Positions 4,909 to 29,093 of a stretch of DNA of 64,000 nucleotides are shown in pieces. The translations under genes and the position numbers were made by a program. Every line of letters starts with the position of its first letter. Position 1 is the first letter of the stretch. The DNA lies in NCBI GenBank assembly GCA_041739995.1, contig JBGSMV010000040.1, forward strand, positions 64,001-128,000, written 5' to 3'. The notes beneath the pieces were generated by a model, which was not told where the DNA came from, did no database searches, and saw only the letters and a list, made by a program, of their open reading frames with translations. The DNA is from Bdellovibrionota bacterium. Its GTDB lineage: Bacteria; Bdellovibrionota_C; UBA2361; JBGSMV01.

Positions 4909-5733
4909 CTAAGAATCGATTAGCGCCTGTCGGCTAACCACCTGCCTGATTCCATCGAACCCCGGTATCGGCATCTTAATTTTAGCAATTCGGCTTCCGA
5001 CCTGGGCAAGCGCGTTCGCATTGGAGAAACTAAAGAGCTGGAATTTTTCTTTTGGCCAGCGGCGTTTAAAGAATCGCAGCGAATCAGCATACGCCAAGTC
5101 AAAGGCTCTAAATCCGTATTGCTCCACAAGCATAGGTATCGCAGCGAGGCGATAAGGAGTCTTATCCATGCGACTGGGCATCGCGACTGCCTGATGCGCA
5201 TCGACCACACGCAAAATTTCTTGTAACGACACAGTCACGCAGAAGGAGCGGCTACCAAAAGCACTCTCAGGTACTTTAATTTCCTTCAAGAAGTCTTCAA
5301 TGCGCGCACCGCTGTAACATTCAGGGAACAGACAGGTCAGGATTATATCATTACAGCTGGGAATCGCTGCGCGAATCACCACTCCGGGGACTACTGTAAG
5401 CGCAGTGCCTCTGGCTGCATCAACTACTCGATCAATGAACTTGCCACTATAGAAATCAGTAACTCCAATGACGTCCAGGCCCTTCACTTTCGCGAGGCGC
5501 ACCAGCGCAGGCGCCGTATCCAGGCCCTCCACGCCTAGGTATCCCAGAGAAGCGGGACTGTGGATCCTGAGATCCATTACATAGCTCTTTTGGCGAGTTT
5601 TGGTCTTCAGCGCTTGCGCGCTGTCACCTACGTCGGCGCCCACTTCAGCAGCCGCATTTTCTTGCCCGATCTCACCCGGCTCAAGCACCGAAGTTTCAAC
5701 TTGATCGCTAAGACCGGAACGCTTTGCTGTCAT
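4909..5733 (-). CDS. PHP-fold protein with degenerate metal ligands
   Basis: DLRIHSPAS...KGLDVIGVTDF...VVPGVVI...FSNAN follows the PHP motif layout. Start moved to ATG 5733 because the longer ORF-track start overlaps the upstream gene. Confidence 0.75.
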   Translation of the reverse strand: MTAKRSGLSDQVETSVLEPGEIGQENAAAEVGADVGDSAQALKTKTRQKSYVMDLRIHSPASLGYLGVEGLDTAPALVRLAKVKGLDVIGVTDFYSGKFIDRVVDAARGTALTVVPGVVIRAAIPSCNDIILTCLFPECYSGARIEDFLKEIKVPESAFGSRSFCVTVSLQEILRVVDAHQAVAMPSRMDKTPYRLAAIPMLVEQYGFRAFDLAYADSLRFFKRRWPKEKFQLFSFSNANALAQVGSRIAKIKMPIPGFDGIRQVVSRQALIDS

Positions 5734-5785
5734 AATTTGCCTTAAAAAGTGTCGGATAGCGGCCCAGTGACCGTCTTCCTTAGAG

Positions 5786-6259
5786 CTATTCTGCCGCTGG
5801 CGGTTCAGGATGTGCTGCCGGTTCGGGGGTCGGCGCTGGAGCTGGCTCAGGAGCTGCTTTGGGTGCCGCCTCCTTTGCTGGCGCTGGGGCTTTACTAGGC
5901 ACACCAGAAAGCGCCTCACGAATAGAAGTGCGAAGCGCTCCGATTTGGACATCAATACGTTCCAAATCTGCTCCACTTGCCAAACTTCCCACCGCAGTAA
6001 GCGTTTTCTCTACTCGGACCTGCATGAGATTTAGTTTGTTGATAAGTAAATCAACCTTGCCTTCGACTAACGTCAAATCTGTCTGCGTCGCCACGCCAAG
6101 TAAGCGTGCAACCGCGGAGACCGGCATATCTGTTCTGTTGCCTTCAGCTGATTTGCCACTTCGCTGATCACTGGTCACCACCTCGGTTTCCTTCTTGGCC
6201 ACTGTGGCCTCGGATTCCGCTGTTTGACCTTTTTCGTCTGATGCGTTTGTTGCCGTCAT
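5786..6259 (-). CDS. Hypothetical protein with a coiled-coil core and a Pro/Ala-rich C-terminal tail
   Basis: 157-aa ORF, heptad-like LVEGKVDLLINKLNLMQVRVEK, PAPA-rich tail, same strand as its neighbours. Confidence 0.7.
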   Translation of the reverse strand: MTATNASDEKGQTAESEATVAKKETEVVTSDQRSGKSAEGNRTDMPVSAVARLLGVATQTDLTLVEGKVDLLINKLNLMQVRVEKTLTAVGSLASGADLERIDVQIGALRTSIREALSGVPSKAPAPAKEAAPKAAPEPAPAPTPEPAAHPEPPAAE

Positions 6260-11086: not shown

Positions 11087-11530
11087 TTACAGCACTCTCT
11101 CTTTAAGAGACTTCGACGCTGAGAAACGAACACGTCGACGAGCTGGAATCTGCACTGGCTCTCCAGTTTGCGGATTACGACCAACACGAGCCTTTGACTG
11201 ACGTACGTATAGTTTTCCAAGGCCCATAAGTGGCAGCTTGAAGCCCTTACGTAGTGACTCAGTGATAAACGCTGCAATATCTTCCACTACTTCCTTCGCT
11301 TGTGAGCGCTTTGGAAGTCCGCAGAAAGCACGAATGTTCTCGAGGAACTCTGACTGGGTGTAGCTCAAAGTGCCAGTATTGCGAGGTTTGGAAACCTGGC
11401 GAACCTTTGACTGCAGTACGATTCCGGATGGCTTCGCAACCATCGTCTTCTTAGCTGCTGCTGGCTTCTTAGCTGAACGAGCTGGTTTGCTTGATTTTTT
11501 GGCGGCTTTTTTCATTGGCTTTTTAGCCAT
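11087..11530 (-). CDS. hup: HU-family DNA-binding protein with an N-terminal Lys/Ala-rich extension
   Basis: GLGKLYVRQSKARVGRNPQTGEPVQIPARRRVRF is the HU/IHF signature. ATG 11530 follows a GGAG Shine-Dalgarno and begins MAKKPMKKAAKK. Confidence 0.9.
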   Translation of the reverse strand: MAKKPMKKAAKKSSKPARSAKKPAAAKKTMVAKPSGIVLQSKVRQVSKPRNTGTLSYTQSEFLENIRAFCGLPKRSQAKEVVEDIAAFITESLRKGFKLPLMGLGKLYVRQSKARVGRNPQTGEPVQIPARRRVRFSASKSLKERVL

Positions 11531-11997
11531 AAGAACAATCTCCAATAGACAAATAAATACTATCAAAATTTCAAAAAAGCCCCAAAATTCGTGGCTTTCT
11601 GGAGAGTTCGAGTCCTCTCATTGGCGAATATAGGAACAACTCGCGACTTCGATCAACAAGAAAAACAAGGCTAAACGCAACATTTCATAGCTCTCGAGCG
11701 TGTGCCCGCAGCGGGCGGTCGAGGCCCTTTGGGTGGGAAACTAAGCTAAAAATGCGGGATTCTTGGTCATTTCGCTCCTTTTGGCATGCCATCTATCCCC
11801 ACTCCCTCATCTGGCGCTGCTCATTGCTGAGACGCAAAGTAGCTAAAACAAGCCAATTTGAAGGCGCTAAGCCTGCAAGTAAGACCAAAGTGGCGCACTG
11901 CAGAGCGGAATGACTAGAATATGCAATGCAGCCCCTTGCTCGATGACGTAACGAATCGATACAGAAGTCCCAGATTGGCCGAAACGAAAAACCCAAT

Positions 11998-12735
11998 ATG
12001 CTTAAACAAGTTCTTGGTCTTCTAGTTGGTTCTCAGCTTCTATTCGCTCCTCTACTGAGAGCTGACTCAGGTAGTGTTCCGGTATTCCTTCAGGAACTAT
12101 CACTGCAAATCCCGCGCGACCTTGTGTTGGTATCGAGCGGCAAGCAGCCAGGAGAAGAACAGCTCGGTGTAGGCTCCCAAAGCGCACCTCATTCGCCTGC
12201 CCCATCATCGTTCGCTCCGGGCCCGATCCTAGTGGCCCGTAGCTCCGCTCGCGATTCAGGCTTCCCCACCTTCAATATAGTGAAAGCTCCCGGTGCGTTT
12301 CCTGCACCCCCCAAAGACCTTGCGAAACTCTCACAAGTGTTAGCCGCCAGCTACCAATCAGTTGGCATGTTCGAGGCGAAAAGCACCGCCGCCATTTTTG
12401 TGCCGTCCACCGTCGAGGACCTTCCACTCATTTCGCTCACATATCGAAACGGTCCGCATGAGATGCGGGCAGCCGTAAGCGTACTCTCGTTTTCGGACAG
12501 GCATTATGTATTCACTTGGACTGACCAAGTCGCTGAGGCTAAAGATCCGTCCGCACTGAGTCTGCAGGCGACCGGAGTGCTTGCGACTCTTTCGTGGAAA
12601 CCAGAATCTGCCGTCGCTCGCATGAAAGAACCCGTTGCGTCACTCAGCCCGGCTTCAATGGCACTTCTGGTTCTCTGCTTCATTTGCTTCGCTGGGGTTG
12701 CGTATTTACTCAGAAGGACGCGCTTTTCAAAGTAG
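11998..12735 (+). CDS. Hypothetical exported protein with a C-terminal membrane anchor
   Basis: Signal-peptide-like N-terminus; C-terminal hydrophobic helix followed by RRTRFSK. Confidence 0.7.
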   Translation: MLKQVLGLLVGSQLLFAPLLRADSGSVPVFLQELSLQIPRDLVLVSSGKQPGEEQLGVGSQSAPHSPAPSSFAPGPILVARSSARDSGFPTFNIVKAPGAFPAPPKDLAKLSQVLAASYQSVGMFEAKSTAAIFVPSTVEDLPLISLTYRNGPHEMRAAVSVLSFSDRHYVFTWTDQVAEAKDPSALSLQATGVLATLSWKPESAVARMKEPVASLSPASMALLVLCFICFAGVAYLLRRTRFSK

Positions 12736-12942
12736 CCAGACCCACATCCTTCCTGAAGATCGCCGTCACGCATCTCTTCGCATAACAACCAAGCAACTTC
12801 GCTGGCAAGTTCTCATTCGCCGAACACCCGATACTCTAGCTTCGCTCTCTCGGTGGCTATTTCGAAAAATCATACGACGATGGAAGGGAAGGTTCTTCTC
12901 GTGGTTTTGGTACGGGTCTTTCGACCCAGAAAGGCGGTAGTT

Positions 12943-13662
12943 ATGAGTGTTGAGTTTCCGAAACCTGATTTCGAGGCGGCCAAGAGGGCGTGGCTCTCGG
13001 GCACGGATCAGGGCCACTGGGCATGGGCCCTGGGGGATCTGATCTCCATGGGCGCGCCCATCCTGGAAACCTTCCGGGTCTGCGCAGAGGCCTTCCCGCA
13101 TCCGCGTCTGAAGCTCCTCAACTTTGAGGTGCACAACACGGTGCGAGAGGGTGGCTCGATGGTCGATGGGCTGAACGTGGCCGGTCTGCTCGGTGCGCTC
13201 GACCCGCATCTGATCGATCTGGTGAACATCGGCGAGGAGACTGGAGAGCTCGACACGATGCTGCACCGCTACGCGCGGTGGGCAATCGGCGGCTCTCCCA
13301 AGACTCTGGCCCAGGCGCTTGGCCGCGACCAGCGCTTGATCAGTTTCACCGAGCAGCTCAGCATGCTGCAAGACGCAGGGCTTCCGTTGCTGCGTTCCCT
13401 GCAGATGCTGGCGGATCACCCGACGTTGGCGGGTGCCAAAGTCGCTCTGGGCAAGCTGCAGGAGCAGATCGAGGGCGGCTCAAGCCTCTCTGAGGCGATC
13501 GCTTCTCTCGGTTCGCCGTCCCTTGGTTCGCCGTCCCTTGGTTCGCCTGGCCTCCCTGTCGACCCGGTCCTGCTCGCAATCCTGCGCGCAGGTGAAGTCG
13601 GCGGAGTCCTCGATCTCGCGCTCGTGCGTCTGGCACAGCAGAACAAGGCCCTGCTTCCCTAG
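12943..13662 (+). CDS. Type II secretion F / PilC-like protein made of two cytoplasmic domains with no TM segments
   Basis: GAPILETF...VREGGSM...IGEETGELDTML, then FTEQLSMLQDAGLPLLRSL...IEGGSSLSEA...RAGEVGGVLD. ATG 12943 follows aaggcgg. Confidence 0.85.
   Translation: MSVEFPKPDFEAAKRAWLSGTDQGHWAWALGDLISMGAPILETFRVCAEAFPHPRLKLLNFEVHNTVREGGSMVDGLNVAGLLGALDPHLIDLVNIGEETGELDTMLHRYARWAIGGSPKTLAQALGRDQRLISFTEQLSMLQDAGLPLLRSLQMLADHPTLAGAKVALGKLQEQIEGGSSLSEAIASLGSPSLGSPSLGSPGLPVDPVLLAILRAGEVGGVLDLALVRLAQQNKALLP
13507..13551 (+). repeat. 15-bp tandem repeat x3 encoding LGSPS-LGSPS-LGSPG
   Basis: ctcggttcgccgtcc cttggttcgccgtcc cttggttcgcctggc. Confidence 0.95.
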
Positions 13663-13699
13663 CGAACGAGAGACAACACACTAAAAGGTTCTACCCAAT

Positions 13700-13726
13700 T
13701 GGGAGCCCCTCGGCTCCCATTTCTTT
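13700..13726 (+). terminator. Rho-independent terminator after the PilC-like gene
   Basis: tgggagcc-cctc-ggctccca followed by tttcttt. Confidence 0.8.
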
Positions 13727-13988
13727 GTCCGAGGTTTAAGTCAGGAAAAAAGGAGGCACTCGAGAGCAGCGCCGAATCCATCGCACCAGATACCCAGCGG
13801 ACCAGTGGTCGCAAGCACTCCGACCTTATTAATCAGCAAAATCAAAGTCTCTTCGAGATGCCATAAGCGAGCGCGCTCATTTTACTCAAAAATGCAGTTT
13901 TTCTGCGACGACCAGTTTGGCCGAATTCAAAAACAAAGATTTTGAATTCGGCCGAGGGACAACACATAGCCTAAAGAACTCGCGTCCC

Positions 13989-15011
13989 CTATCTCAGCAA
14001 CACGCCACCCCTCTTCGCAATGAAACTATCAACTTTGCCCGGCTCTTTGCCGCCACCGTCAGCGAATGCCACCGATATCATTTCGGTATTGAAACTATAG
14101 GCTGGCGAACCAAATGGTGGCACCACTACCATGCCACCGCCTCGTTTGCCTGATTTTCGAGAGAGCTCACTAAATTCACTCTGAAGAATTGCATCCAGCT
14201 TTTCGGGATGCTCGCGAAAAACTGTCGGATGTTCTCGAACAGAGGTGCTCATTCGAGACAGCACGAACCCTGAGACAAGCCCCGAGAGCAATGATTCCCC
14301 ATGACCAGTGGTAGAGAGCGCGCCAATCTCATTGTCAGCGAACACTCCTGAGCCGATGATGGGAGTATCTCCAATTCTACCATTGTCCTTAGAATTCACT
14401 CCTCCGGTTGAAGTCCCCGCGCAAAGATTGCCTTCCATATCTCGCACCACACACCCCACTGTTCCCCCGGAAGTCTCTCCTGAAACAGTAAATTCAACGC
14501 CTTCGTCTTTAAGCCATTCCACAACCACAGGGGAAAGTAACTCTTCGTGAGTTTTGACCCAACCGTATCTATCTTTGATAAAGCGCGGCGCACCGTCGAC
14601 CTCATTCATTAATTCATGGGTCCAAACCGTCATCAATGTGCGATTAGGTTTAAGCATGTCGAGCGCGATTGCCGAGGGCATTTTTACGCGTCGAACATTC
14701 AGCAAAGAAACAAAGTCTCTGTTGCCACGCATCAACCCCACGTCAAGAAGTACGATGCCATGCACGTTGGGATATCCCCCAAAGCCGGCATTAAAATAGC
14801 TGGAAGCCTCCATCTCGCGCAGTGCTGCGGCGACTCCAAATTCAGCTGGCTTTCCTTTTTGAAGCTCATCCCACGCAGCGCGCACCGCTTGGCGCATCAC
14901 GGGAACTTTCAATAATGCCCGTTCGTCGGGTAATTTTCCCGCGCCGCCATGCACTATCACGCACGGCTTACCCTTCTCGACCGCCATCAAACGCTTATCA
15001 TTATCGCTCAT
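13989..15011 (-). CDS. iaaA: Isoaspartyl peptidase / L-asparaginase (Ntn hydrolase)
   Basis: IVHGGAG, FNAG, GTVGCV (nucleophile Thr), TSTGG, GRIGDTPIIGSG, STTGHGE. Start taken at ATG 15011. Confidence 0.9.
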   Translation of the reverse strand: MSDNDKRLMAVEKGKPCVIVHGGAGKLPDERALLKVPVMRQAVRAAWDELQKGKPAEFGVAAALREMEASSYFNAGFGGYPNVHGIVLLDVGLMRGNRDFVSLLNVRRVKMPSAIALDMLKPNRTLMTVWTHELMNEVDGAPRFIKDRYGWVKTHEELLSPVVVEWLKDEGVEFTVSGETSGGTVGCVVRDMEGNLCAGTSTGGVNSKDNGRIGDTPIIGSGVFADNEIGALSTTGHGESLLSGLVSGFVLSRMSTSVREHPTVFREHPEKLDAILQSEFSELSRKSGKRGGGMVVVPPFGSPAYSFNTEMISVAFADGGGKEPGKVDSFIAKRGGVLLR

Positions 15012-15372
15012 AGATCTTGTTCTAGTTGCTGCAGCTGGTAGTCCAAAACGATCGCTCCCAAACGAGACACACGTCACTCTGCACAGGCAGTTCATCGATT
15101 TTCAATATTTACTTTGGTGCGTTAGGCTCTCTATTGCAAGAGCGTTACTCTCTCTTCCGATAAGGAACTGATTGAACTGTTACCCTGGCCGGACGGACGC
15201 CTTTCTCGTTAAAAGATACACCGGTGGCACTTGAACTCTGTCCCCGAGCCCCTGTCCCCTAGCCCCTTTCCTCCAGTCCGACTTGCCAAGCGCCCATAAT
15301 TAGCAAAGAGTTAGCCTCAGATAAGCGTTTTGTTACTACAGAATAGGAATCTTGCTTTTCGAGGCTTCGGCT

Positions 15373-16656
15373 ATGAAGATGGAATTATCGACCCTACGAC
15401 ACTGCGTTATTTCAGACGAGAAGCAGCGCATTCTCTTCGCCACCGACGTACTCTCTCAGCCAGCCAGCGAGGTCATGCTCAAAAATGACAAGCTGCTACA
15501 CCACCAGTGCAGCCGCGCGCTTCCGATCGCCACCGAACGAGATATCGTCGTGCTCCAGGGAACGTTGGACGAGGCCTATCATCGCTGGCTCCGCAGCTTC
15601 GGCCTCAGCACGGACAATATTGTCGAATACGGTGAGAAGCAGGCCAGTGGCCCGCTTTCCAATGTAATTCGAAACAATCCAGGTCCGGTGCTTTCTGCCG
15701 TTGGCAAGGATGCCCACACGGTCTATCTCGCCTTTTATCTCGCCAAGAACGACATCGCCTGCGCAAAAGAACTTGGGGTGCACCCCTTTGGCTGTGACGA
15801 AGAAATTACCAGTAAGTACTTCGACAAGTTAAGTTTCAAACAAGAATGCCAAAAACTTGGCATTCCTACCATCGAGGGACATCACCACAAAATCGACGTT
15901 ACCAGTCCGCTGAACCGCGACGAGATGGCCGAGCTCATCCATCGCCTGCTTTCAAATTATGGCAAGGTGATTGTACGTGGGACTGACGGGTCCGCCGGTC
16001 GCTCGCTTTACACCATCGATCAACCAGACGTTCGAGAGCTTTATGAAGCAATTGTTTCAAATCGTGACAAGACAGTCTTGATCGAGCCGTTTCTGAATGT
16101 GGTCTCCTCTCCAAACGACCAATGGATGATCGGGCAGTCAGGCGAAATTCGTCACTTCGGACTATCCGCCCAGTTGTTTCAAGGACTCAAGCACGCCGGC
16201 AATTTCTTTGGGCAGTACTACTCACCACGCGTCGCTCAGTACATAGAGGAAACCTCATCGAAAATTGTGCAAGCGATGGCCGAGGGCGGATATCGTGGAG
16301 TGCTTGGCGTAGACTATATCGTCTGCGAAGAAGGGATTTTCCCGATTGAGAATAATGCACGTCTCAACGGTTCGTCTTTTGCGCTTGAACTGTTTCATAT
16401 TATCTCAAAACAAATCAAAGACGTTCGCTGCTGGAAATTCTTCAAAGCCAAGTGCGACAAGATGTCATTCACTGAATTCAAAGAGAAAGTCGGGAGACTC
16501 CTATTTGACGGGAAGCGAGTAAACTCAGTGTTCCCGTTTGTGACGGGACTGATTCCTGAAAAGGGTGAGTTTATTGCGCTGCTTCTGGCTGAAGACACCT
16601 ACCACATAGACTATTTGCAAGATGCGCTGACTTACGCCGGAATTCATCGGGCATGA
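15373..16656 (+). CDS. ATP-grasp ligase (pre-ATP-grasp / PGM1-like peptide ligase)
   Basis: FDKLSFK, GSAGRSL loop, VLIEPFL, YRGVLGVDYI, IENNARLNGS. Confidence 0.8.
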   Translation: MKMELSTLRHCVISDEKQRILFATDVLSQPASEVMLKNDKLLHHQCSRALPIATERDIVVLQGTLDEAYHRWLRSFGLSTDNIVEYGEKQASGPLSNVIRNNPGPVLSAVGKDAHTVYLAFYLAKNDIACAKELGVHPFGCDEEITSKYFDKLSFKQECQKLGIPTIEGHHHKIDVTSPLNRDEMAELIHRLLSNYGKVIVRGTDGSAGRSLYTIDQPDVRELYEAIVSNRDKTVLIEPFLNVVSSPNDQWMIGQSGEIRHFGLSAQLFQGLKHAGNFFGQYYSPRVAQYIEETSSKIVQAMAEGGYRGVLGVDYIVCEEGIFPIENNARLNGSSFALELFHIISKQIKDVRCWKFFKAKCDKMSFTEFKEKVGRLLFDGKRVNSVFPFVTGLIPEKGEFIALLLAEDTYHIDYLQDALTYAGIHRA

Positions 16657-16814: not shown

Positions 16815-17855
16815 ATGGTGAGCACGGGCTATAACACGGCTCCAGAGGAATTTAATTTTCGAGCTCCCACCAAGAGAGTTTCACTAACCGATTCATGCTG
16901 CCCAGTCGCCATGCAAACACCTCACCAACAATCTCACGCGAATGCTTTTCCAATTCCGGCTCAATCGGGTGTCAGCCCTGATCGATCAAAACTGACGCTG
17001 CTGCTCGCACAGAGCGGAGCTTCCAATCTTCAGCTTTCTGGCCCAGCTGAAGCGGCCATCTTATCCCTGCTTGGCCCTCTTGTACGCGGCACCGCGGTGC
17101 GGTTCCAGCTTGAACGACCCTCGATGCCTGCCCCTCAGCAATTAGACTTAGAAGTCACTTCCCATAGGGGCGCGCCGTCGTTCCGTGTGCTTACGGGCTC
17201 CCATGAAGACGCACAGGAGTCCCGCATTCTCTCTATCGCAAGGGACGGACTCCCTGCGATTCAACGTCGAGACTGCGCCGCATGGTTCAATCCAATGATT
17301 GAGATTTGGAAAAGACCTCTCTCAATTAGCTCCGGCTGGGATGCGTTTAGATCTAGTATCGGAGGATTAGTAACAATTACCTCTCGCTTCGAAGGAACCG
17401 AAAGCACCGTCGTGGGTACCCTTTCGAGTAGCGAACCTGGAAACGATCGTTTCGCTGTGCAGCGCGACGATGGCAAGGTTAGCACTTACTCTCCAAAGTC
17501 CGGCGTTGAACTCCTAAGTGTAAGTACCTGCATACGAGGACTGCTGTGGCAGCGACCTAAAGGCGTCTCAGACTCGATTGGCGATGTGCATGAGTTGCGT
17601 CAACTCCTCCCCGATGGAGCGACAGTGGAGGCCACACTTCATGATGGATACCGTATTTCAGGTACCTGGCGTGGGGTCGACGATCGATACCTACCACTAA
17701 TCGCCGTTGAAAGTGGCGCAGCGAAGCATCGCGGGGATGGAATTTTTGCTGCACGCTTGCAGGACATAGCGAGCCTTCGCACGGTGGGGATCGAGTCAGG
17801 GGGCGTTCAGCCCTACAAAGTTCTGTGGAAGGCCGACTCTTCACCTACTAAATAA
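16815..17855 (+). CDS. Hypothetical protein
   Basis: 346-aa ORF filling the space up to the nuoN stop; no motif recognised. The start may be at 16911. Confidence 0.6.
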   Translation: MVSTGYNTAPEEFNFRAPTKRVSLTDSCCPVAMQTPHQQSHANAFPIPAQSGVSPDRSKLTLLLAQSGASNLQLSGPAEAAILSLLGPLVRGTAVRFQLERPSMPAPQQLDLEVTSHRGAPSFRVLTGSHEDAQESRILSIARDGLPAIQRRDCAAWFNPMIEIWKRPLSISSGWDAFRSSIGGLVTITSRFEGTESTVVGTLSSSEPGNDRFAVQRDDGKVSTYSPKSGVELLSVSTCIRGLLWQRPKGVSDSIGDVHELRQLLPDGATVEATLHDGYRISGTWRGVDDRYLPLIAVESGAAKHRGDGIFAARLQDIASLRTVGIESGGVQPYKVLWKADSSPTK

Positions 17856-17863
17856 GATGCCTT

Positions 17864-19393
17864 CTATGGTCCCGCAAAACCTAGCATAACCGCCGCCGCA
17901 CTATCATGCAGCAGTCCTGGGAAAAGCCCGAACAGCACCACGCCGAGAGAACATACGCCAAGCACGCTCAGCAAGGCCGGGGTCAAGGCCGGCAATGCCT
18001 CGACAGGCTCTGCCTTATCCCCTGCTTCTGACTTCATAAAATACATGGCTACAATCACGCGCAAGTAATAGTAGCAAGACACCGCCGAGTTAAGCACCGC
18101 GATGATAACAAGGCCTACATAGTCGGCTCTAATTGCAGCTCCAAAAATGTAGAACTTACCAAGTAGGCCTGCCAGTCCTGGAGGAATTCCTGCAAGAGAA
18201 AGCATAAAGAGCGCCATGAGAGCAGCCAGTAGCGGAGCTCGCTCGGACAATCCATAGAATTTAGAAATGTGGTCGTGATCTCGCTCGCTCTCGCCCTCTG
18301 AGGTCACCCCAAGAATGACCGCAAAGGCACCCATCGTCATGAGTGTGTAACCAATCAGATAGTAAAGAATTGCGGCTCCGCCACCATTGGTGTCACCAGG
18401 CGCCAGAAAGGCAATCATCATGTACCCCGCATGCGCGATGCTCGAATACGCCAGCATTCTCTTCACACTGCGCTGACGCAGCGCTATCAGATTCCCACCA
18501 CACATGGTCAAGACTGCTAAAGTCCATACCGCACCGATCCAGAACTGCTGCACGTCTTCGAAAGCCACCCACAACACACGCAGCGTTACCGCAACCGCTG
18601 CGGCCTTAATCACACAGGCCATGTAGGCAGTGACTGAAGTCGGAGCGCCCTGATAAACGTCGGGAGCCCAAAAGTGAAAAGGCACCGCACCAATTTTAAA
18701 TACCAAACCGACCAACATGAGACCGAGCGATAACATCAAGATTGGCGATGCGTTCCCCGCAATTTCCCTCGAAACCGCAGAGATAAAAGTCGTGCCCGTT
18801 ACTCCGTAGAGCAGCGCAATTCCGTACAGTAAAAATGCACTACTAAACGAGCCCAGTAGAAAGTATTTCAGCGCCGACTCGGCTGAGCGACGCAGTCTAA
18901 GTGCGGAGCCGCACAGCGCGTAAAGTGCCAGAGACATTATTTCTAGACTCACGAACAAGGTCACCAGCTCTGCGGCGGCAACAAACATGAGCGCCCCTGC
19001 GGTGGCAAACAGCACCAAGGCATAGAACTCGCTCTTCGCCTCTATTCCTTGGGCGCTCAGCTTGCCCATACCGAGCAGTACGGCCAGCATTGAACCAAAT
19101 AGCAGCACTACACCCATAAAAGTCGAAAATGGGTCGACGTATACAAAGCCGCTAAAGGCAGTCTGCCCTGGGCCCGCAAGTCCACCGGTGGCTGCCCCGA
19201 AAAATGCAGCAACTACTAAGATGCCGACGGTCATCCATCCGGCACAGTCTTGGCCAACACACTCACCTGTCTGAGAAACGGTCGCTTTTGCTCGCGAGGA
19301 AAAGGCCTCCCAAAGAAGCAGCAAGAGCGCGCCTAAGACCACTACTATGAGCGGAGAAACCAGAAACATCTGAAGTCCAAGACTAGTATTCAT
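17864..19393 (-). CDS. nuoN: NADH-quinone oxidoreductase subunit N
   Basis: ESALKYFLLGS, FKIGAVPFHFWAPDVYQGAPT, KRMLAYSSIAHAGY. Confidence 0.97.
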   Translation of the reverse strand: MNTSLGLQMFLVSPLIVVVLGALLLLLWEAFSSRAKATVSQTGECVGQDCAGWMTVGILVVAAFFGAATGGLAGPGQTAFSGFVYVDPFSTFMGVVLLFGSMLAVLLGMGKLSAQGIEAKSEFYALVLFATAGALMFVAAAELVTLFVSLEIMSLALYALCGSALRLRRSAESALKYFLLGSFSSAFLLYGIALLYGVTGTTFISAVSREIAGNASPILMLSLGLMLVGLVFKIGAVPFHFWAPDVYQGAPTSVTAYMACVIKAAAVAVTLRVLWVAFEDVQQFWIGAVWTLAVLTMCGGNLIALRQRSVKRMLAYSSIAHAGYMMIAFLAPGDTNGGGAAILYYLIGYTLMTMGAFAVILGVTSEGESERDHDHISKFYGLSERAPLLAALMALFMLSLAGIPPGLAGLLGKFYIFGAAIRADYVGLVIIAVLNSAVSCYYYLRVIVAMYFMKSEAGDKAEPVEALPALTPALLSVLGVCSLGVVLFGLFPGLLHDSAAAVMLGFAGP

Positions 19394-19403
19394 ATTCCCC
19401 TGC

Positions 19404-21077
19404 TCAAAATTCTCTGCCTAAGGACTGCCGATCGCTCCGTGCCGCAGGCTGATAGTCCAAGAGCTTCACACTCCCCGAGTCGAGCTGCTCCAAAGCGGCG
19501 AGTTTTACTTCGTGAGAATCGAGCTCTTTGGCAAAACGCTGAGCGCTCCCACGAGACGCGAGAAGACTATCGGCTCTCATCTGCACGGCACCCTTCCAAG
19601 CCGCAACCGAAGGCTCAATTGCGCGCAAGAACGGCTGCGGGAAAAGCCCGATGACGAAGACTAGAACCAACAGCGGCACCAGAGCGGCAAGCTCGTGGCG
19701 ATTTACATCCTTAAGATTTCCATTCCTCGCAGTATCAAGCTCTCCGAACATAGTTCGAAGATACAGCGTCAGCATGTACACCGCCCCAAGAATGACGCCT
19801 AAAGTAGAGATAGCGGTCAACACCGGGAATACCTGGAAGCTTCCGGTAAGAATTAAAAACTCTCCGATGAAACCATTGGTAAGCGGCAGTGCGATAGAGC
19901 TAAGCGTGAATACCAAGAACAGGAACGCGAACACAGGAACCTGCGCGGCCAAGCCACCATACTCAGAGATCTCCCTGGTATGTCGTCGGTCATAGAGCAC
20001 ACCCACGAGCAAGAACAATGCGCCAGTAGAGATGCCGTGATTAATCATCTGTAGCACTGCGCCGCTGGTGGCTATGACATTAAAAGCCACCACCCCCAAC
20101 ACACAAAACCCAAGATGCGCGACTGAGGAGTACGCAACCAGCTTCTTGATGTCGTGCTGTGCCCAGGCGACCAGGGATCCGTACACGATTCCAATTACCG
20201 CCAACCCCGCCAGGTAGGGCGCGAAGAGTTCAGCGGCCAATGGAAACAGCGGATAGGCGAAGCGAATAAACCCGTAGAGCCCCATTTTTAAGAGAATCCC
20301 GGCAAGCACCACTGAGCCCCCGGTAGGAGCTTCGACGTGCGCGTCTGGCAACCAGGTATGAAAAGGGAATATCGGAACTTTAATTCCAAACGCCAGGGCG
20401 AATGCAGCAAAGAGCCAAAACTCTTCGGTGAAGCTCAGATTGGTTCCAAGCAGTAACTGCTGCAACGCGAAGGTAATCTCTCCATCATGCTGCTGGGCGT
20501 GCTGCCACACTACGTACAGTATGGCGACCAACATGAGCACTGAACCAACCACGGTGTAGAGCACGAACTTCAAGGTGGCGTAGATGCTCCGCTTGCCACC
20601 CCAAATACCGATGATGAAATACATCGGGGCCAGCATCAGTTCCCAAAAGACGTAGAATAGAAACAAGTCCAGGGCCACCAAAGTACCGAGCATGGCGGTC
20701 TCAAGCACGAGCATCGCGGCCAAATACCCGCGGAGCTTGGTGGTGACCGAGCGCGACGCCACTACTATAATCGGCATGAGAAACGTGGTGAGCATCACCA
20801 ACCACAAGCTAATGCCGTCCACGCCCAGTTGATAACGCACCCCAAAACTTGGGATCCAAGCAACGTTCTCTACGAACTGATAGGCGCTGATTGAGGAGTC
20901 AAAGCCCAGCAACATCATCAAGGAGATGCCGAACGTTACCAGGGAAGCCCCCAGTGCCGCCGAGCGCACCGTTTCGACCTTGGAAGATGGGAACAGATAC
21001 AACAGCGCCGCTCCGATCAACGGGAGGAACACTATCGTACTCAAAAATGGAAAATTTGCAGCGACGGTTGTATCCAT
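19404..21077 (-). CDS. nuoM: NADH-quinone oxidoreductase subunit M
   Basis: LGVDGISL, FYVFWE, IKVPIFPFHTWLPDAHVEAPT, KKLVAYSSVAHLG. Confidence 0.97.
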   Translation of the reverse strand: MDTTVAANFPFLSTIVFLPLIGAALLYLFPSSKVETVRSAALGASLVTFGISLMMLLGFDSSISAYQFVENVAWIPSFGVRYQLGVDGISLWLVMLTTFLMPIIVVASRSVTTKLRGYLAAMLVLETAMLGTLVALDLFLFYVFWELMLAPMYFIIGIWGGKRSIYATLKFVLYTVVGSVLMLVAILYVVWQHAQQHDGEITFALQQLLLGTNLSFTEEFWLFAAFALAFGIKVPIFPFHTWLPDAHVEAPTGGSVVLAGILLKMGLYGFIRFAYPLFPLAAELFAPYLAGLAVIGIVYGSLVAWAQHDIKKLVAYSSVAHLGFCVLGVVAFNVIATSGAVLQMINHGISTGALFLLVGVLYDRRHTREISEYGGLAAQVPVFAFLFLVFTLSSIALPLTNGFIGEFLILTGSFQVFPVLTAISTLGVILGAVYMLTLYLRTMFGELDTARNGNLKDVNRHELAALVPLLVLVFVIGLFPQPFLRAIEPSVAAWKGAVQMRADSLLASRGSAQRFAKELDSHEVKLAALEQLDSGSVKLLDYQPAARSDRQSLGREF

Positions 21078-21079
21078 GA

Positions 21080-23035
21080 TCACATCACCAGGTAACATCC
21101 AATAACCAACACCGTGGCGAGAAACATTCCAAGCGCATAGTGTCGAAGGTTTCCAGTCTGTGTGTGGCGCGCGATTTCGCCTGTCATATCCACCACCGCT
21201 GCGGTTCCGTTTACCGAGCCATCAATGATGACCTGGTCAACGCCGCGCCATAAAAAGCGTGCCATACCCTCAAGCGGGCGAATAATAGCCGTGGCATACA
21301 CTTCGTCGAAGAACCACTTACCCTGAGACAATCGCGTTAACGGCTTCAAAGCGGCAGCAATCAAGACTGGGAATCGGGTCAGGTTGGTATAAAACAGAAT
21401 GCCTACCGCAACTCCCAGTACTCCCACCCAAGAATGCATCAGCGCCTGCACAAATGACTCATGATGATGCCCCATTTCGCTAGGGACCACCGCAACCAAG
21501 TAATGCTGAATAGAGAACGCGCCGTCTGCTACCGCACCACCCAGAGTGACACCACCAATCAGAGCAAGCGCTGCCAGCACCATCAACGGTATCGTCATCA
21601 AGTATGGCGACTCATGTGGTTCGTGCGCCGCATGACTGCCGTGATCATGAGCAGCATGTGCATCATGATGGTCATGCGAATGTCCTCCGCGGTAATGCCC
21701 CATAAAGGTCATGGCAAATGAGCGCGCCATATAGAATGCGGTGAGGAAAGCCGTGAAAGTCAGGAGGAGCCCCAGGTACTCAGCAATTGGCCCCACCAGA
21801 CGAGGATTGGTGGTATGTGCCAGTGCATCGACAATGGCATGCTTTGAATAGTACCCAGCGAACGGTGCGATGCCGGCTATGGCCAGAGTGGAAATCAGAT
21901 AGGTCCACGCCGTGATTGGCATCTTAGACCAAAGCCCGCCCATCTTGCGCATGTCTTGTTCATGGTGGCAGCCATGAATGACCGAACCAGCGCCTAGGAA
22001 CAAGCAGGCTTTAAAGAATGCATGGGTAACCACATGAAAAATGGCGACCCAGTATGCACCGACCGAGGCAGCTACAAACATGAAGCCAAGCTGGCTCACC
22101 GTTGAGTAAGCCAGCACCTTCTTAATATCGTTCTGGGTAAGTGCCGTGGTTGCCGCAACAAAAGCGGTAAGGCCTGCGATAACCGCCACGACTAACATCG
22201 CATCCGGTGACGCATCAAAAGCAAGATGCATTCTCGCCATCAGGTACACACCGGCGGTCACCATGGTGGCAGCATGAATCAATGCAGAGACTGGGGTAGG
22301 ACCAGCCATGGCGTCAGGCAGCCACACAAAGAGCGGAATCTGTGCAGACTTACCGGTCGCACCGACGAAGAAGCAAAGCGCAACCAATGTGGCTAAATCT
22401 GCAGAAAGCGGCTGAGCAGTAAACGCTGCATTCAAAGCTCCAAACTCAAGTGTCCCGTACTGACGAAACAACAAGAACATGCCCAACAAAAATCCTGCAT
22501 CTCCAATTCGATTCACCACGAAGGCTTTTCGACCAGCCGAGGCGTAGTCCACGTTTTTGAACCAAAATCCGATCAGCAGATAGGAACAAAGCCCTACCCC
22601 TTCCCAGCCCACAAAGAGGACTGGAAGATTCCCTGCGAGAACAAGGATGAGCATGCAAAACATGAAAAGATTGAGGTACGAGAAAAAGCGATGTCGCGCC
22701 TCTTCTTCTGCCATGTAGGCGATTGAGTAGAGATGGATCAGACTGCCCACGCCCGTAACCACTAAACACATTACTGCGGTGAGTGCGTCAAAGCGGAAAA
22801 GAAAATCGATATCGAGCCCGCCTACCGCTATCCAGGTGCCAAGCGATCCGACAAACGCTGCATCCGGCGCAAGGTTCGAGAACAGAACCACAGTCCACAC
22901 GAAAGATAACCCGGCAGACGCAGTCGCTATCCAACCAGCGAGGTCGCGAGCTTTTCGCCCAATCAGAAACGCCAACACCGCCCCAATCGCCGGGAAAGCG
23001 GGAATCAACCACAACATTGCTTGACTACTTTCCAT
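21080..23035 (-). CDS. nuoL: NADH-quinone oxidoreductase subunit L
   Basis: GWEGVGLCSYLLIGFW, KSAQIPLFVWLPDAMAGPTPVSALIHAATMV, THAFFKA. Confidence 0.97.
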   Translation of the reverse strand: MESSQAMLWLIPAFPAIGAVLAFLIGRKARDLAGWIATASAGLSFVWTVVLFSNLAPDAAFVGSLGTWIAVGGLDIDFLFRFDALTAVMCLVVTGVGSLIHLYSIAYMAEEEARHRFFSYLNLFMFCMLILVLAGNLPVLFVGWEGVGLCSYLLIGFWFKNVDYASAGRKAFVVNRIGDAGFLLGMFLLFRQYGTLEFGALNAAFTAQPLSADLATLVALCFFVGATGKSAQIPLFVWLPDAMAGPTPVSALIHAATMVTAGVYLMARMHLAFDASPDAMLVVAVIAGLTAFVAATTALTQNDIKKVLAYSTVSQLGFMFVAASVGAYWVAIFHVVTHAFFKACLFLGAGSVIHGCHHEQDMRKMGGLWSKMPITAWTYLISTLAIAGIAPFAGYYSKHAIVDALAHTTNPRLVGPIAEYLGLLLTFTAFLTAFYMARSFAMTFMGHYRGGHSHDHHDAHAAHDHGSHAAHEPHESPYLMTIPLMVLAALALIGGVTLGGAVADGAFSIQHYLVAVVPSEMGHHHESFVQALMHSWVGVLGVAVGILFYTNLTRFPVLIAAALKPLTRLSQGKWFFDEVYATAIIRPLEGMARFLWRGVDQVIIDGSVNGTAAVVDMTGEIARHTQTGNLRHYALGMFLATVLVIGCYLVM

Positions 23036-23140
23036 ATACTCCCGTCAATCTAGCTTCGGTCAGGATTTCTTGAACCCTGCTCAATCCAACCCCGAACACC
23101 TCGACTTCAAAGGCACCGGTCACTTAAAGTCTCAGGTCGC

Positions 23141-23443
23141 CTAAAGCCGCAGGTCAGAAGTGTCCGTCGTCTCAATCGAGTTCATCGATCTAAACACCGA
23201 AATAATAATCGCCAATCCAACCGCAGCCTCGGCAGCGGCCACCACCATCACAAAAAAAACTGATATCTGACCATCAAGCTCACCGTGCATCTGCGACAAT
23301 GCGACGAAACTAAGGTTCACCGCGTTCAGCATCAGCTCGATACACATGAACACCACGATGGCGTTCCGTCTGACAACGACACCGATCACTCCGATAGTGA
23401 AGATCACGGCAGAGAGTGTCAGGTAAAGACTTACTGGAACCAT
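23141..23443 (-). CDS. nuoK: NADH-quinone oxidoreductase subunit K
   Basis: [34 protein letters not shown] 23443 has an AAGGAAGG Shine-Dalgarno. Confidence 0.97.
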
Positions 23444-23456
23444 AATCTCGCCTTCC

Positions 23457-24014
23457 TTATGACTCTCCGTGCACCAGTTCACGCGGCTGAGGTTTTGATT
23501 CTCGCTTAGCCAACATCACTGCGCCCACAATGGCTGCCATCAGAAGCACTCCTGATGCTTGAAACAAAAAGACGTACTCGGTGAAAAGGCGTCGGCCGAT
23601 CGCTTCTACAGTGCCCTCTACCGCCACCATGTCAGCACCAGTCCCGCCCGCACCAGCCGAGCCCGAAACTAACAGCGAGTCCATCGCTTCTCTAACCACA
23701 GGAACCGCCACTAGAAGAAAAACTCCTCCTGCGATTATCGCCAGTACCGAAAGAACATTCTCGCCCTTAGTTCGGCTCTCAACCTTGAGATTAAGAAGCA
23801 TCAGCATAAACACCACCAACACCACGATGGCGCCGGCGTACACAATGATTTGAACCGCCGCCAGAAAGTGGGCATCCATCATGGCGAAGAATGCGGAAAT
23901 GGCGAGCAGGTGCGCCACGAGTCCAAGCGCACTGTGAATGGGGTTTTTAAGCGCCACCACTGAGACGGCAGAAACAATCGCCAACAAAGCGGTGACCGCA
24001 AACAAGCCTATCAT
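23457..24014 (-). CDS. nuoJ: NADH-quinone oxidoreductase subunit J
   Basis: [32 protein letters not shown]. Confidence 0.96.
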
Positions 24015-24058
24015 GAAGCGTAACCCCCTCTCCGTGTCTGTATTTCAATCCAAAGCAC

Positions 24059-25330
24059 TTAGAACCATCCTGCGAGACGAAGTGCTCCCAGCACCATCAA
24101 ATTAATGAACGCGATTTCCAGCAGCCACTTCCAGCCCAAATCCATCAACTGATCGTAGCGAAAGCGCGGCAAAGTCCAGCGAATCACAATCTGCAACACG
24201 CAGAAGAACACTACCTTACCCATCAGAATCATGTGGCCAATCAGGCTAGAAGCCCAGTGATTCTGAGGAAATTGAACGAAGTCGCCAAGGAACGGCAGCG
24301 GATGCCAGCCCCCAAAGAATACCAGTGCAAGCACAATGGCGAATAAGGCAATTTCGGTAAACTCCCCCATCCAGAACAACAAGAACTTCATGCCCGAGTA
24401 CTCAGTGAAATATCCGGCTACTAATTCCGATTCACTTTCAGGCAAATCAAACGGCCCTCGCTTGGTCTCCGCCATTCCCGCGACAAAGAAAATTATCATG
24501 GCGATGAACATGCAAGGATTCTGCAAGGCCCCCCAAGTGTTGCCCTGCATTTCGACCATGGCGTACAAGTCCAAGCTTCCGTACATCAGAATCGCCGTGG
24601 CAAGCGCAACTCCTAGCGCCAACTCATAGGAAATCATCTGCGCGGCCGCGCGAAGACTGCCCAACAGAGCAAACTTGTTGTTACTGCTCCAACCCGCTAA
24701 CGCAACGCCATAGACCGCCATGGAGCCCATCGCCAAGAAGAACAATATCCCTGCGTTTAATTCTGCAATCTGTGGGCGAATCTGATAACCGAACAATGCA
24801 AACTCTGGTGCCAACGGGATAATGGCGAATGCGAGGAAGATCGGAAGTGCCGCCAGCACGGGAGCTAGACTGTGAATTATCGGAGAAACCCCGTTGGGAA
24901 TAAAATCCTCTTTGGTCAATGCCTTCACCGCGTCGCACACCAGCGTGTTGATCACACCGAGAATGCCCAAGCCTCTTATCACGAAAGGCACCATCGAGAG
25001 CCCAAACAACAAGATGCCGACAATCAGCACTCCGCCGAGCACTTCCTGTGGAGGGAGAATGCCTGAAAGACTCACGACCCCAAATTGCAGGATCAACAAA
25101 CTAAGCCCTAAGAGAACAAAGAGAATTCCGAACACTCTTGCGGTCAGCAGACCTTTGGCTAGAAATGGATTCTCAATCTCAAAGAACGCACCCGCCCTGT
25201 TCGCGCCAATTCGATCCTGAATCAGCGCCGAGCCCTTGCGCTCTACCCATGTGCAAAACGCTGACATGCTCATCGCCAAATTAAAGACGACAAACACCTC
25301 AATGAACAAAATCAGATACTCTATGCCCAT
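24059..25330 (-). CDS. nuoH: NADH-quinone oxidoreductase subunit H with an N-terminal insertion
   Basis: WVERKGSALIQDRIG, GWSSNNKF, AQMISYE, PFDLPESESELVAGYFTEYSG, RWTLPRFRYDQLM. Confidence 0.96.
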   Translation of the reverse strand: MGIEYLILFIEVFVVFNLAMSMSAFCTWVERKGSALIQDRIGANRAGAFFEIENPFLAKGLLTARVFGILFVLLGLSLLILQFGVVSLSGILPPQEVLGGVLIVGILLFGLSMVPFVIRGLGILGVINTLVCDAVKALTKEDFIPNGVSPIIHSLAPVLAALPIFLAFAIIPLAPEFALFGYQIRPQIAELNAGILFFLAMGSMAVYGVALAGWSSNNKFALLGSLRAAAQMISYELALGVALATAILMYGSLDLYAMVEMQGNTWGALQNPCMFIAMIIFFVAGMAETKRGPFDLPESESELVAGYFTEYSGMKFLLFWMGEFTEIALFAIVLALVFFGGWHPLPFLGDFVQFPQNHWASSLIGHMILMGKVVFFCVLQIVIRWTLPRFRYDQLMDLGWKWLLEIAFINLMVLGALRLAGWF

Positions 25331-25350
25331 ACGCTGATATACGTCCTTAA

Positions 25351-27045: not shown

Positions 27046-27116
27046 TCGATCACCGACGTCTTCTTAATCTCTCCGAATCACCCAGCCTGGTTTCAGGCTC
27101 GCTACTTCCTAAGTCT

Positions 27117-28433: not shown

Positions 28434-28501
28434 AATCCCTTAAATCTTGCTCAACGCCTTACGTTCAAAGAGCGCTCTACAAACCGCCTAACGCAAACCA
28501 A

Positions 28502-29047: not shown

Positions 29048-29093
29048 CGATTTTTGATTCGCCGAAGAGTTACTAGCCGACGAATTTAAAGAA

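Follow-up and report, generated by a model that had tools for sequence, protein, structure and literature searches.

A soluble two-domain T2SSF protein is encoded on the plus strand at positions 12943..13662 of the window, the whole 64-kb stretch of DNA that was analysed. The gene, which was identified from its open reading frame (ORF) and translation, Pfam matches and homologues, coincides with a GC-rich stretch. It begins with an ATG at 12943 and ends with a stop codon at 13660-13662, giving a product of 239 aa that is acidic (calculated pI 5.2). An alternative upstream start, a GTG at 12853, would give a longer product, but the start at 12943 is favoured because the shortest relative begins at the equivalent Met in the alignment with relatives. 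A possible ribosome-binding site of the AAAGG type, read from the sequence, lies on the plus strand at 12929..12934, 8 nt 5' of the ATG, and the consensus scan found 0 sigma-70-like promoter sites upstream of the ORF. A terminator-like hairpin with a T-rich tail (13700..13729, plus strand) was detected by the consensus scan and as inverted repeat I11; its 8 bp stem (6 GC) is located at 13700-13719, 38 nt past the stop, and is followed by TTTCTTTGTC. The terminator that had been assigned to the gene in the preliminary description, made from the sequence alone, is thus present as a consensus match only, in a region that holds 4 such sites compared with 1.7±1.1 in shuffled sequences.

A minus-strand ORF at 12766-13419 overlaps the gene and represents a GC-rich shadow. 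The possibility that the 12943 ORF is itself a chance ORF or an antisense shadow was ruled out by its homologues and its predicted fold. Inside the gene, three 15-nt tandem repeats (13504..13548, plus strand; repeat search, family D1) encode (GSPSL)x3, a 10-aa loop insertion. This insertion was specific to the 239-aa protein, being a gap in all 12 of the 12 other rows of family alignment A2, and residues 192-198 in the same region had a pLDDT below 50 in the AF2 model.

The domain composition of the protein was analyzed using Pfam. The T2SSF family (PF00482) was matched twice, with 87 bits against a cut-off of 25.2, and the match covered only the first ~87 of the 125 profile positions, that is, the profile without its membrane part. 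Domain A (residues 25-112; 13015..13278, plus strand) is a cyto2-like six-helix bundle with the motifs GAPILE, REGG and GEETGELD, assigned by HMM, by the PilC profile and by a pLDDT of ~90. Domain B (residues 130-233; 13330..13641, plus strand) is a cyto1-like six-helix bundle with the motifs FTEQL, AGLP, SLSEA and AGEVGGVLD, assigned by HMM, by the PilC profile and by BLASTP. The cyto1 and cyto2 motifs named in the preliminary description are present, and they agree with conserved columns of the canonical alignments. The inter-domain linker (residues 113-129; 13279..13329, plus strand), defined by the HMM envelopes and the AF2 secondary structure, contains a short helix at 122-125 and stands where the canonical protein has its third transmembrane (TM) segment and the N-domain. 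It is about 14-18 residues long, shorter than the roughly 25 residues first estimated.

The order of the two domains was investigated by three independent comparisons. With cyto1 and cyto2 HMMs custom-built from 109 canonical PilC, residues 1-118 scored 51.9 bits for cyto2 and 21.7 bits for cyto1, whereas residues 119-239 scored 75.0 bits for cyto1 and 18.0 bits for cyto2; the same cyto2-then-cyto1 pattern was seen in four of the four family members first found. A full-length PilC profile placed the first half at profile positions 281-366 and the second half at positions 72-161. BLASTP against a Phycisphaeraceae PilC gave crossing HSPs, in which residues 130-232 matched 77-166 (46% identity) and residues 24-111 matched 291-375 (33% identity). 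These sequence comparisons showed that the domain order is cyto2 followed by cyto1, the reverse of the canonical order, as had been proposed at the outset.

Canonical PilC/GspF proteins contain three TM segments, which are located after cyto1, before cyto2 and after cyto2. The hydropathy scan detected no TM helix in the 239-aa protein, the highest Kyte-Doolittle 19-residue window being 1.72, whereas three canonical PilC controls each showed three segments with values of 2.9-3.8. The N-terminal domain T2SSF_N (PF28597) was absent, PF00482 being the sole Pfam match, and the equivalog scores were far under their cut-offs (79 vs 424 bits for TIGR02120, and 58 vs 700 for NF052606). The 239-aa protein is cytoplasmic and consists of only the two motor-facing bundles, lacking both the N-domain and all three membrane helices. 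A decayed pilC gene, which had been raised as an alternative, was ruled out, since the PilC profile run on 138 six-frame segments of 11500-15200 matched the ORF alone (E 8e-36), the runner-up segment having an E-value of 4.7 with a negative score, and no TM or PilC remnants were found in adjacent frames.

Next to the composition of its surroundings, the gene appeared foreign. Its GC content was 0.644, in comparison with 0.530±0.021 in other ORFs, and its GC3 was 0.766, in comparison with 0.545±0.043 in 42 other ORFs (z = 5.1). With this codon composition and a position alone among housekeeping genes, in a genome that is probably from a Bdellovibrionota relative, the gene probably arrived by horizontal transfer on its own. 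A Pfam scan of the 45 ORFs in the 64-kb window with a length of 120 aa or more revealed no neighbouring T2SSE, T2SSF, secretin or pilin family, and no class-III signal-peptide (pilin) motif was present in any frame of the window. The absence of pil or gsp genes nearby and the GC-richness of the gene, earlier judged by eye, were thereby borne out. No phage or mobile-element family was matched among the 45 window ORFs scanned, no tRNA was found in the 64-kb window and no known RNA element was found near the gene. A flanking 15-nt inverted repeat was considered as a mobile-element boundary and rejected as weak, its length being reached in 12 of 500 shuffles.

The structure of the 239-aa protein was predicted by AF2. 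The model built with 13 family rows showed two helical bundles, with a pLDDT of 89.0 and a pTM of 0.86; it superseded an earlier model built with 4 rows, in which Domain B had a pLDDT of 69. The pTM suggests that the two domains are held in a fixed mutual arrangement in the model. Each domain superposed on the solved cytoplasmic domains of EpsF, OutF, PilC-N and TcpE with TM-scores of 0.64-0.75 (rmsd about 2 Å for EpsF and OutF), and PDB entries were matched at the sequence level too; the sole matched entry for full-length PilC in the PDB copy searched was the architectural model 3jc8. Prediction of a three-copy complex gave a score of 0.00 in a run made without controls, a result that carries no weight on oligomerisation in either direction.

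Intact relatives with the same TM-less permuted layout were found, comprising three proteins at 37-46% identity (P0002-P0004) and nine more cluster representatives that matched the profile over their full length in a single stretch (P0121-P0123, P0126, P0159, P0169, P0171, P0197 and P0218). The family layout is 200-250 aa with two T2SSF bundles, a short linker and no hydrophobic segment where the TM helices of canonical proteins lie; three of the nine profile-matched relatives had one hydrophobic window of at least 1.9, which lay inside the first cyto2-like helices and not at a TM position. All 13 C2-C1 proteins are intact; their identity to the 239-aa protein is 28-47%, and they share the invariant motifs G-x-P-I-L, G-E-x-x-G and E-x-G-G, in line with a family under constraint. 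Soluble T2SSF proteins also occur in the canonical C1-C2 order and as repeats of three or four bundles (P0125, P0149 and P0124, the last being the four-domain protein). No informative fused domain was found in the 12 longer relatives scanned. The architecture had not been recognised as a described one; its structural reading stood, but it is not a single oddity, since a wider soluble set exists in both orders. Because soluble tandems occur in both orders, the defining new feature is the loss of the membrane part and not the swap.

The distribution of the soluble form was also investigated. Among 185,579 species-representative genomes it was found in 0 of 34 loci, all 34 of which had the canonical cyto1-TM-cyto2-TM layout, and no soluble T2SSF ORF was present in the 10-kb flanks of these canonical loci; the family is therefore rare. 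A search of the protein collection with the A2 profile retrieved mostly canonical PilC, with 4 family members among the 120 matches listed, and the matches in the ESM Atlas were short T2SSF-fragment clusters only. Among the matches listed, P0002-P0004, P0171 and P0218 were on contigs of 1.2-4.2 kb. Searches of 50,697 phage records, 72,556 plasmids, PHROGs, PADLOC and BFVD gave no relatives, so known mobile elements lend no support to the suggestion of a mobile factor acting against pili or phages. A literature search confined to papers outside subscription-only access found no description of soluble or permuted T2SSF proteins.

We analyzed the phylogeny of soluble and canonical domains. In the cyto1 tree, eight C2-C1 proteins, four C1-C2 proteins and one repeat protein formed one clade with a support of 97, and in the cyto2 tree 21 soluble domains formed a clade with a support of 86. 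In the concatenated tree a single branch set the 45 canonical rows, without exception, apart from the soluble ones. The support of this separating branch was weak (32) and the soluble rows were long-branched, so the clustering of soluble proteins could be partly due to long-branch attraction. In the same tree the two halves of the four-domain P0124 had the C2-C1 protein P0197 as their sister, with a support of 99. Placement of the 13 C2-C1 proteins together in one clade was rejected by the AU test (p 0.0013), which indicates that the domain order flipped more than once. The family is sparse and fast-evolving, with both domain orders and repeats of three to four domains.

Conservation was examined at the columns that were at least 75% conserved in 137 canonical domains, in comparison with the clade of the window protein. 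This clade kept the canonical residue in 66% of cells for cyto1 (26 columns) and in 51% for cyto2 (30 columns), whereas at variable columns the canonical residue was found in 17% of cells. The losses lay partly at the bundle ends that adjoin TM helices (cyto2 columns 2-15 and 101-104, cyto1 column 99); in the 239-aa protein the core motifs of both bundles were retained and the conserved residues leading into the membrane helices were lost. Canonical-conserved residues were also replaced at cyto1 columns 14, 15, 36, 70 and 73 and at cyto2 columns 43, 67, 80 and 83. If these columns correspond to the ATPase interface, binding may have been lost or retargeted. The net charge of the cyto1-like domain was -3.7 in soluble proteins in comparison with +1.5 in canonical proteins, and the pI was 4.1-5.5 in 16 of 18 soluble proteins, in keeping with adaptation to a soluble state.

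Compared with known systems, the 239-aa protein is closest to PilC/GspF/PulF (PF00482, TIGR02120, NF052606): both bundles are homologous (46% identity for cyto1 and 33% for cyto2), the fold matches the domains of EpsF, OutF, PilC and TcpE, and the core motifs are kept. It differs in having neither TM1-3 nor the N-domain, in its reversed order and acidity, in being about 60% of the canonical length, and in the lack of adjacent ATPase or pilin genes. TadB/TadC (CpaG/CpaH) resemble it in that T2SSF domains have been re-partitioned among polypeptides. According to the relevant passages of the sources, that pair arose by gene fission and has nevertheless been modelled as a six-domain ring (PMC6668835, PMC12019362, PMC10790770). 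TadB and TadC are products of tad operons and each carry one domain together with its membrane helices, whereas the 239-aa protein has both domains in one chain, no membrane part, and lies outside any operon.

The phage proteins Tip, Aqs1 and Zip and the host protein CpiA are described, in the part of the review covered here, as soluble proteins that bind the PilB motor and switch off pilus extension, CpiA being thought to be horizontally acquired (PMC11656802). By analogy, the 239-aa protein may belong to the same functional class. They differ from it in being short peptides or helix-turn-helix dimers that are not platform-derived, and by their descriptions they are unrelated to it in sequence or fold; the word 'mimic' had 0 occurrences in the covered part of that review (PMC11656802).

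A possible function is suggested by models of the platform trimer, in which, as described in portions of the published work, the six cytoplasmic domains are arranged in a ring, with cyto1 and cyto2 in alternation (PMC10790770), and each ring domain contacts the N2 domain of one ATPase subunit (PMC10790770, PMC12019362). In an alternating ring a cyto2-cyto1 unit is as valid as a cyto1-cyto2 unit, which would explain the survival of both orders. The 239-aa protein, alone or as an oligomer, might dock onto hexameric motors of the PilB/PilT/GspE type, or alternatively insert into the cytoplasmic ring of the platform; either way it would be a competitor of the membrane platform, and pilus or secretion activity would be damped or gated as a result. 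We favour this reading, which follows the decoy or regulator role put forward in the preliminary description, tentatively, at somewhat below an even chance. A more speculative extension, which we regard as unlikely, is that soluble T2SSF tandems are horizontally mobile 'platform decoys' that join, or fill part of, the six-domain ring by which PilC/GspF is normally coupled to the hexameric motor, and block PilB/PilT/GspE-type ATPases from the cytoplasmic side. In such a ring the order would not matter, hence the repeated flips, and a Bdellovibrionota-like host could use this one-gene cassette to turn type IV pili on or off or to gain protection from pilus-dependent phages.

Other explanations were also considered. 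The gene could be a functionless passenger, a piece of a platform gene that was transferred or rearranged not long ago, is open by chance and is idle in its host. Its orphan position among housekeeping genes, foreign composition, copy-specific slippage repeat (GSPSL)x3 and lack of a promoter-like site in the upstream scan agree with this, as do the rarity of the family and the short contigs carrying its homologues among the matches listed. Yet 13 proteins of the same layout are intact and keep the core motifs of both bundles across 28-47% identity, and a random fragment would not persist in this way; the confident predicted fold, the clean stop followed by a terminator-like hairpin, and the lack of frameshifts or PilC remnants around the ORF also argue against a passenger, which we consider improbable.

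The bundles could instead act positively, as an adaptor or socket that couples a PilT/GspE-family or other ring ATPase to a non-membrane partner, or that keeps motors in a soluble, assembly-ready pool. The analogue would be the V-type ATPase C subunit (subunit C of Thermus, or d), which the relevant section of the PulF paper describes as a soluble pseudo-trimer of Cyto1-like six-helix bundles that serves as a rotary-ATPase socket between V1 and V0 (PMC10790770). The soluble proteins with three and four bundles and the core motifs kept in both bundles are in line with such a role. That subunit has three bundles in comparison with two in the 239-aa protein, no detectable sequence relationship was seen, and a V-ATPase chain was absent among the PDB matches listed for the model, at ranks up to 50. 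With no partner gene adjoining the ORF, and no informative fused domain in the 12 longer relatives, we give an adaptor a rather low probability. Another target would be the platform itself: the protein could bind the cytoplasmic domains of membrane PilC/GspF through the conserved cyto1-cyto2 interface and disturb trimer or ring formation, the ATPase not being involved. In the PulF trimer model, as set out in the portion of the paper covered, each Cyto1 packs over a large area against the Cyto2 of the next protomer, and a conserved patch is buried there (PMC10790770); the 239-aa protein has one domain of each kind, with the core motifs kept. The intramolecular packing suggested by the pTM of the model may already fill this interface, and we hold interference with platform assembly to be quite doubtful.

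Of the core components of type IV pilus and type II secretion systems, the platform proteins are the ones least well understood. In the portion covered, the PulF paper describes attempts at platform structures as being of limited success and is itself based on models, cross-linking and simulation (PMC10790770). What is new here is a small, previously undescribed soluble T2SSF family, present in both orders and as repeats, that clusters apart from membrane PilC. Its soluble motor-facing domains would offer a tractable reagent for reconstituting and solving the ATPase-platform interface, and the family would test the ring model, because both orders and repeats of three to four domains exist. If the decoy reading is true, these proteins would be motor regulators of a new class, having evolved from a component of the very machine they act on. 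If the family inhibits motors, the known regulators of pili or secretion would gain a new class, which might play a part in predation, phage resistance and horizontal gene transfer.

The T2SSF domain of PilC/GspF was found twice in the window protein (239 aa) by Pfam, which scored it at 87 bits (cut-off 25.2). Both matches spanned the first ~87 of the 125 profile positions, that is, the cytoplasmic helical bundle without the following membrane helix. The NCBIfam models GspF, HofC, PilC, XpsF and ComGB gave two-piece matches far under their full-length cut-offs, and TIGR02120 scored 79 bits against a cut-off of 424. The hydropathy maximum (Kyte-Doolittle, 19-residue window) was 1.72, in comparison with 2.9-3.8 reached in three canonical PilC controls, each of which showed three hydrophobic segments. 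The preliminary description, two T2SSF domains and no TM helix, was therefore borne out. However, the linker between the domains, described there as about 25 aa, was instead ~14-18 residues.

Domain order was analyzed using separate HMMs for the first (cyto1, C1) and second (cyto2, C2) cytoplasmic bundles. The training set was 109 canonical PilC sequences (400-420 aa) taken from the word-indexed search described below. Residues 1-118 scored 51.9 bits with cyto2 and 21.7 bits with cyto1, and residues 119-239 scored 75.0 bits with cyto1 and 18.0 bits with cyto2; cyto2-then-cyto1 scoring was obtained for the window protein and its three closest relatives (4/4). The full-length PilC profile placed the first half at positions 281-366 and the second half at positions 72-161. 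BLASTP HSPs against a Phycisphaeraceae PilC crossed in the same way (residues 130-232 with 77-166, 46% identity; 24-111 with 291-375, 33%). These sequence comparisons all agreed with the reversed order proposed earlier, and they show that the order is swapped, cyto2 then cyto1 (C2-C1). The family motifs named in the preliminary description occurred in the protein and coincided with conserved columns of the canonical alignments.

A word-indexed search of 5.8 billion clusters with the window protein as query gave 410 proteins at E ≤0.001. Among the 120 matches listed, only the database relatives P0002, P0003 and P0004, besides the query, had 96% query coverage (37-46% identity); the other 116 were platform-length or partial (333-419 aa, 39-52% query coverage). 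A profile of these four proteins, searched over 1.84 billion cluster representatives, gave additional full-length matches, each in a single stretch (222-250 aa). The architecture table contained nine more C2-C1 proteins (P0121, P0122, P0123, P0126, P0159, P0169, P0171, P0197 and P0218), which with P0002-P0004 provided intact homologues of the same TM-less permuted layout, and nine TM-less proteins in the canonical C1-C2 order (P0129, P0148, P0155, P0176, P0184, P0194, P0202, P0212 and P0241). The table and Pfam also showed soluble repeat proteins without a TM segment, namely P0124 with four domains (C2-C1-C2-C1) and P0125 and P0149 with three each. One hydrophobic window of at least 1.9 was present in each of P0123, P0159, P0169, P0176 and P0202, within the first cyto2-like helices and off the canonical TM positions. 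Two proteins of 298-329 aa, P0151 and P0208 (cyto1-cyto2-TM), appeared to lack the TM1-TM2 hairpin and to keep TM3, and may be membrane-to-soluble intermediates or partial ORFs.

The 13 C2-C1 proteins aligned end to end, with 28-47% identity to the window protein, and G-x-P-I-L, G-E-x-x-G and E-x-G-G were invariant across them. Decay of a pilC gene was ruled out: the full-length PilC profile, run on 138 six-frame segments of 11500-15200, matched the T2SSF ORF frame only (E 8e-36), every other segment giving E ≥4.7 and a negative score, so no pilC remnants lay in other frames. The window protein is neither a one-off nor a decayed pilC. Searches of the phage and plasmid collections and of PHROGs, PADLOC and BFVD gave no relatives, and all 34 loci in a species-representative genome scan were canonical, with the soluble form at none.

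The T2SSF gene occupies 12943-13662 on the + strand (239 codons). A terminator-like hairpin at 13700-13729 (8 bp, 6 GC, T-rich tail), 38 nt past the stop, fits the terminator of its own described previously. The next gene downstream, a convergent asparaginase gene, lies at 13989-15095 on the - strand. A second terminator-like site (minus strand, 13773-13755) and a perfect palindrome (13919-13953, 14-bp arms, 7-nt loop) were seen in the 327-nt spacer between the two genes. The upstream neighbour (11998-12735, +, 245 aa) ends 207 nt 5' of the T2SSF ATG and had no Pfam, PHROG or PADLOC match; by eye, its hydrophobic N-terminus is signal-peptide-like and its hydrophobic C-terminus TM-anchor-like.

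The earlier impression that the gene is GC-richer than its flanks was confirmed by calculation: GC was 0.644 vs 0.530±0.021 and GC3 0.766 vs 0.545±0.043 (range 0.43-0.65) in 42 other ORFs. The high-GC stretch coincided with the ORF, as would be expected if little more than this one gene had recently been acquired horizontally. The GC3 of the upstream neighbour was native (0.51), so this gene was not co-transferred. A perfect 15-nt inverted repeat (12573-12587 / 13808-13822) flanks the GC-rich gene, its left arm within the upstream ORF; because 12 of 500 region shuffles also contained an inverted repeat of 15 nt or longer (in most cases a palindrome), the signal is weak.

Pfam scans of the 45 window ORFs of at least 120 aa showed housekeeping content, including menaquinone genes, HU, asparaginase, NAD synthase, two hybrid histidine kinases and a nuo operon (17864-31140). 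No T2SSE, other T2SSF, secretin or pilin was found among these ORFs and no pilin leader motif in any window frame, in agreement with the claim that pil/gsp genes are missing nearby. The window contained no tRNA, and Rfam matched nothing near the T2SSF gene. The HU-type protein (11087-11566, -) carries a Lys/Ala-rich N-terminal extension of ~65 residues. Six ORFs of 346-595 aa (922-2706, 4912-5976, 15352-16653, 16815-17852, 39774-41339 and 56204-57553) had no Pfam match at E ≤1e-5. The named relatives of the window NuoD at 76-84% identity were mostly Bdellovibrionota, Oligoflexia or 'Deltaproteobacteria' MAGs, so the gene probably resides in a relative of Bdellovibrionota. Members of Bdellovibrionota use type IV pili.

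AlphaFold2 with the 13-row C2-C1 alignment predicted two six-helix bundles (pLDDT 89.0, pTM 0.86), with 192-198 as the sole disordered stretch; four rows only gave a poor model (pLDDT 69). The pTM value suggests that the bundles are packed in a defined way. Each model bundle could be superposed on the solved cytoplasmic domains of EpsF and OutF (target-normalised TM 0.69-0.75, rmsd about 2 Å), PilC-N (TM 0.64, rmsd 4.5 Å) and TcpE (TM 0.69, rmsd 2.9 Å), and the same PDB entries were recovered by sequence profile. A tandem repeat of 3 x 15 nt at 13504-13548 codes for (GSPSL)x3, which lengthens a loop of the cyto1-like domain by 10 aa. This insertion was disordered in the model and missing from the 12 other C2-C1 members; it looks like recent replication slippage.

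At columns where canonical domains show conservation of 75% or more (26 cyto1, 30 cyto2), the window clade kept the canonical residue in 66% of cyto1 and 51% of cyto2 cells, in comparison with 17% at variable columns. Losses were located where the bundles run into the membrane segments (cyto2 columns 2-15 and 101-104; cyto1 column 99) and scattered internally (cyto1 columns 14, 15, 33, 36, 67, 70, 73 and 77; cyto2 columns 18, 19, 22, 67, 80, 83, 93 and 96). The soluble proteins were acidic (pI 4.1-5.5 in 16/18), and the net charge of the cyto1-like domain was -3.7 in soluble vs +1.5 in canonical proteins, which fits loss of a membrane-facing basic surface.

FastTree domain trees were built from 171 cyto1 and 166 cyto2 domains, 137 of each canonical. 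The cyto1 tree placed the window protein inside a clade of eight C2-C1, four C1-C2 and one repeat protein (support 97). The cyto2 tree showed one clade of 21 soluble domains of both orders (support 86) and a second of P0197 with P0124, P0125 and P0149 (support 98). A concatenated tree (IQ-TREE, LG+C20, 72 rows, 210 columns) used a random sample of 45 of the 137 canonical proteins and excluded P0125, P0149, P0211 and P0133, which do not have a single cyto1/cyto2 pair. Every canonical row lay on one side of one branch, but the support for that branch was low (32). The window protein belonged to an eight-member C2-C1 clade (82), which adjoined a four-member C1-C2 clade (89) in a 13-row group (81) of unresolved internal order, and P0197 was sister to both P0124 halves (99). 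Monophyly of the 13 C2-C1 proteins was rejected by an AU test (delta lnL 74.5, p 0.0013), so domain order has switched at least twice among the soluble T2SSF proteins. Repeat forms such as permutation by duplication would be expected to pass through do exist, and P0124, P0125 and P0149 look like these intermediates. Clustering of the soluble forms may be inflated by long-branch attraction, because the alignments are short and the soluble rows long-branched.

Despite its homology to PilC/GspF, the window protein departs from that family in four tested defining features, namely domain order, TM segments, N-domain with full-length score, and operon context, and was therefore not filed as a platform protein. 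No description of soluble or permuted T2SSF proteins was found in the literature searched, with subscription-only papers and database architecture listings outside its scope. T2SSF domains have been re-partitioned before, by the TadB/TadC fission (PMC6668835). PulF is described as a trimer whose Cyto1 and Cyto2 domains make a ring of six alternating domains, with a large interface between each Cyto1 and the neighbouring protomer's Cyto2, and all six are described as touching PulE alike, one N2 domain per Cyto domain, each from a single PulE subunit (PMC10790770). The same ring argument was made for CpaG/CpaH, in which a T2SSF-domain ring of ~80 Å enters the ATPase pore (PMC12019362). In such a ring a cyto2(i)-cyto1(i+1) pair would be as natural as cyto1(i)-cyto2(i), so that, with the membrane helices gone, both orders and repeats could be tolerated.

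Several functions can be considered for the window protein. It might act positively, as an adaptor or a socket in the manner of V-ATPase subunit C, although we consider this rather unlikely; that it poisons the platform ring itself seems improbable, and it is similarly doubtful that the gene is a functionless passenger. Soluble PilB inhibitors form a known class (Tip, Aqs1, Zip and CpiA; PMC11656802), to which the window protein is unrelated in sequence; at most it would work like them. The most economical function, which we propose tentatively, is that the window protein, which keeps only the motor-facing bundles, would bind the N2 domains of the motor or the platform ring and would thereby compete with the membrane platform.
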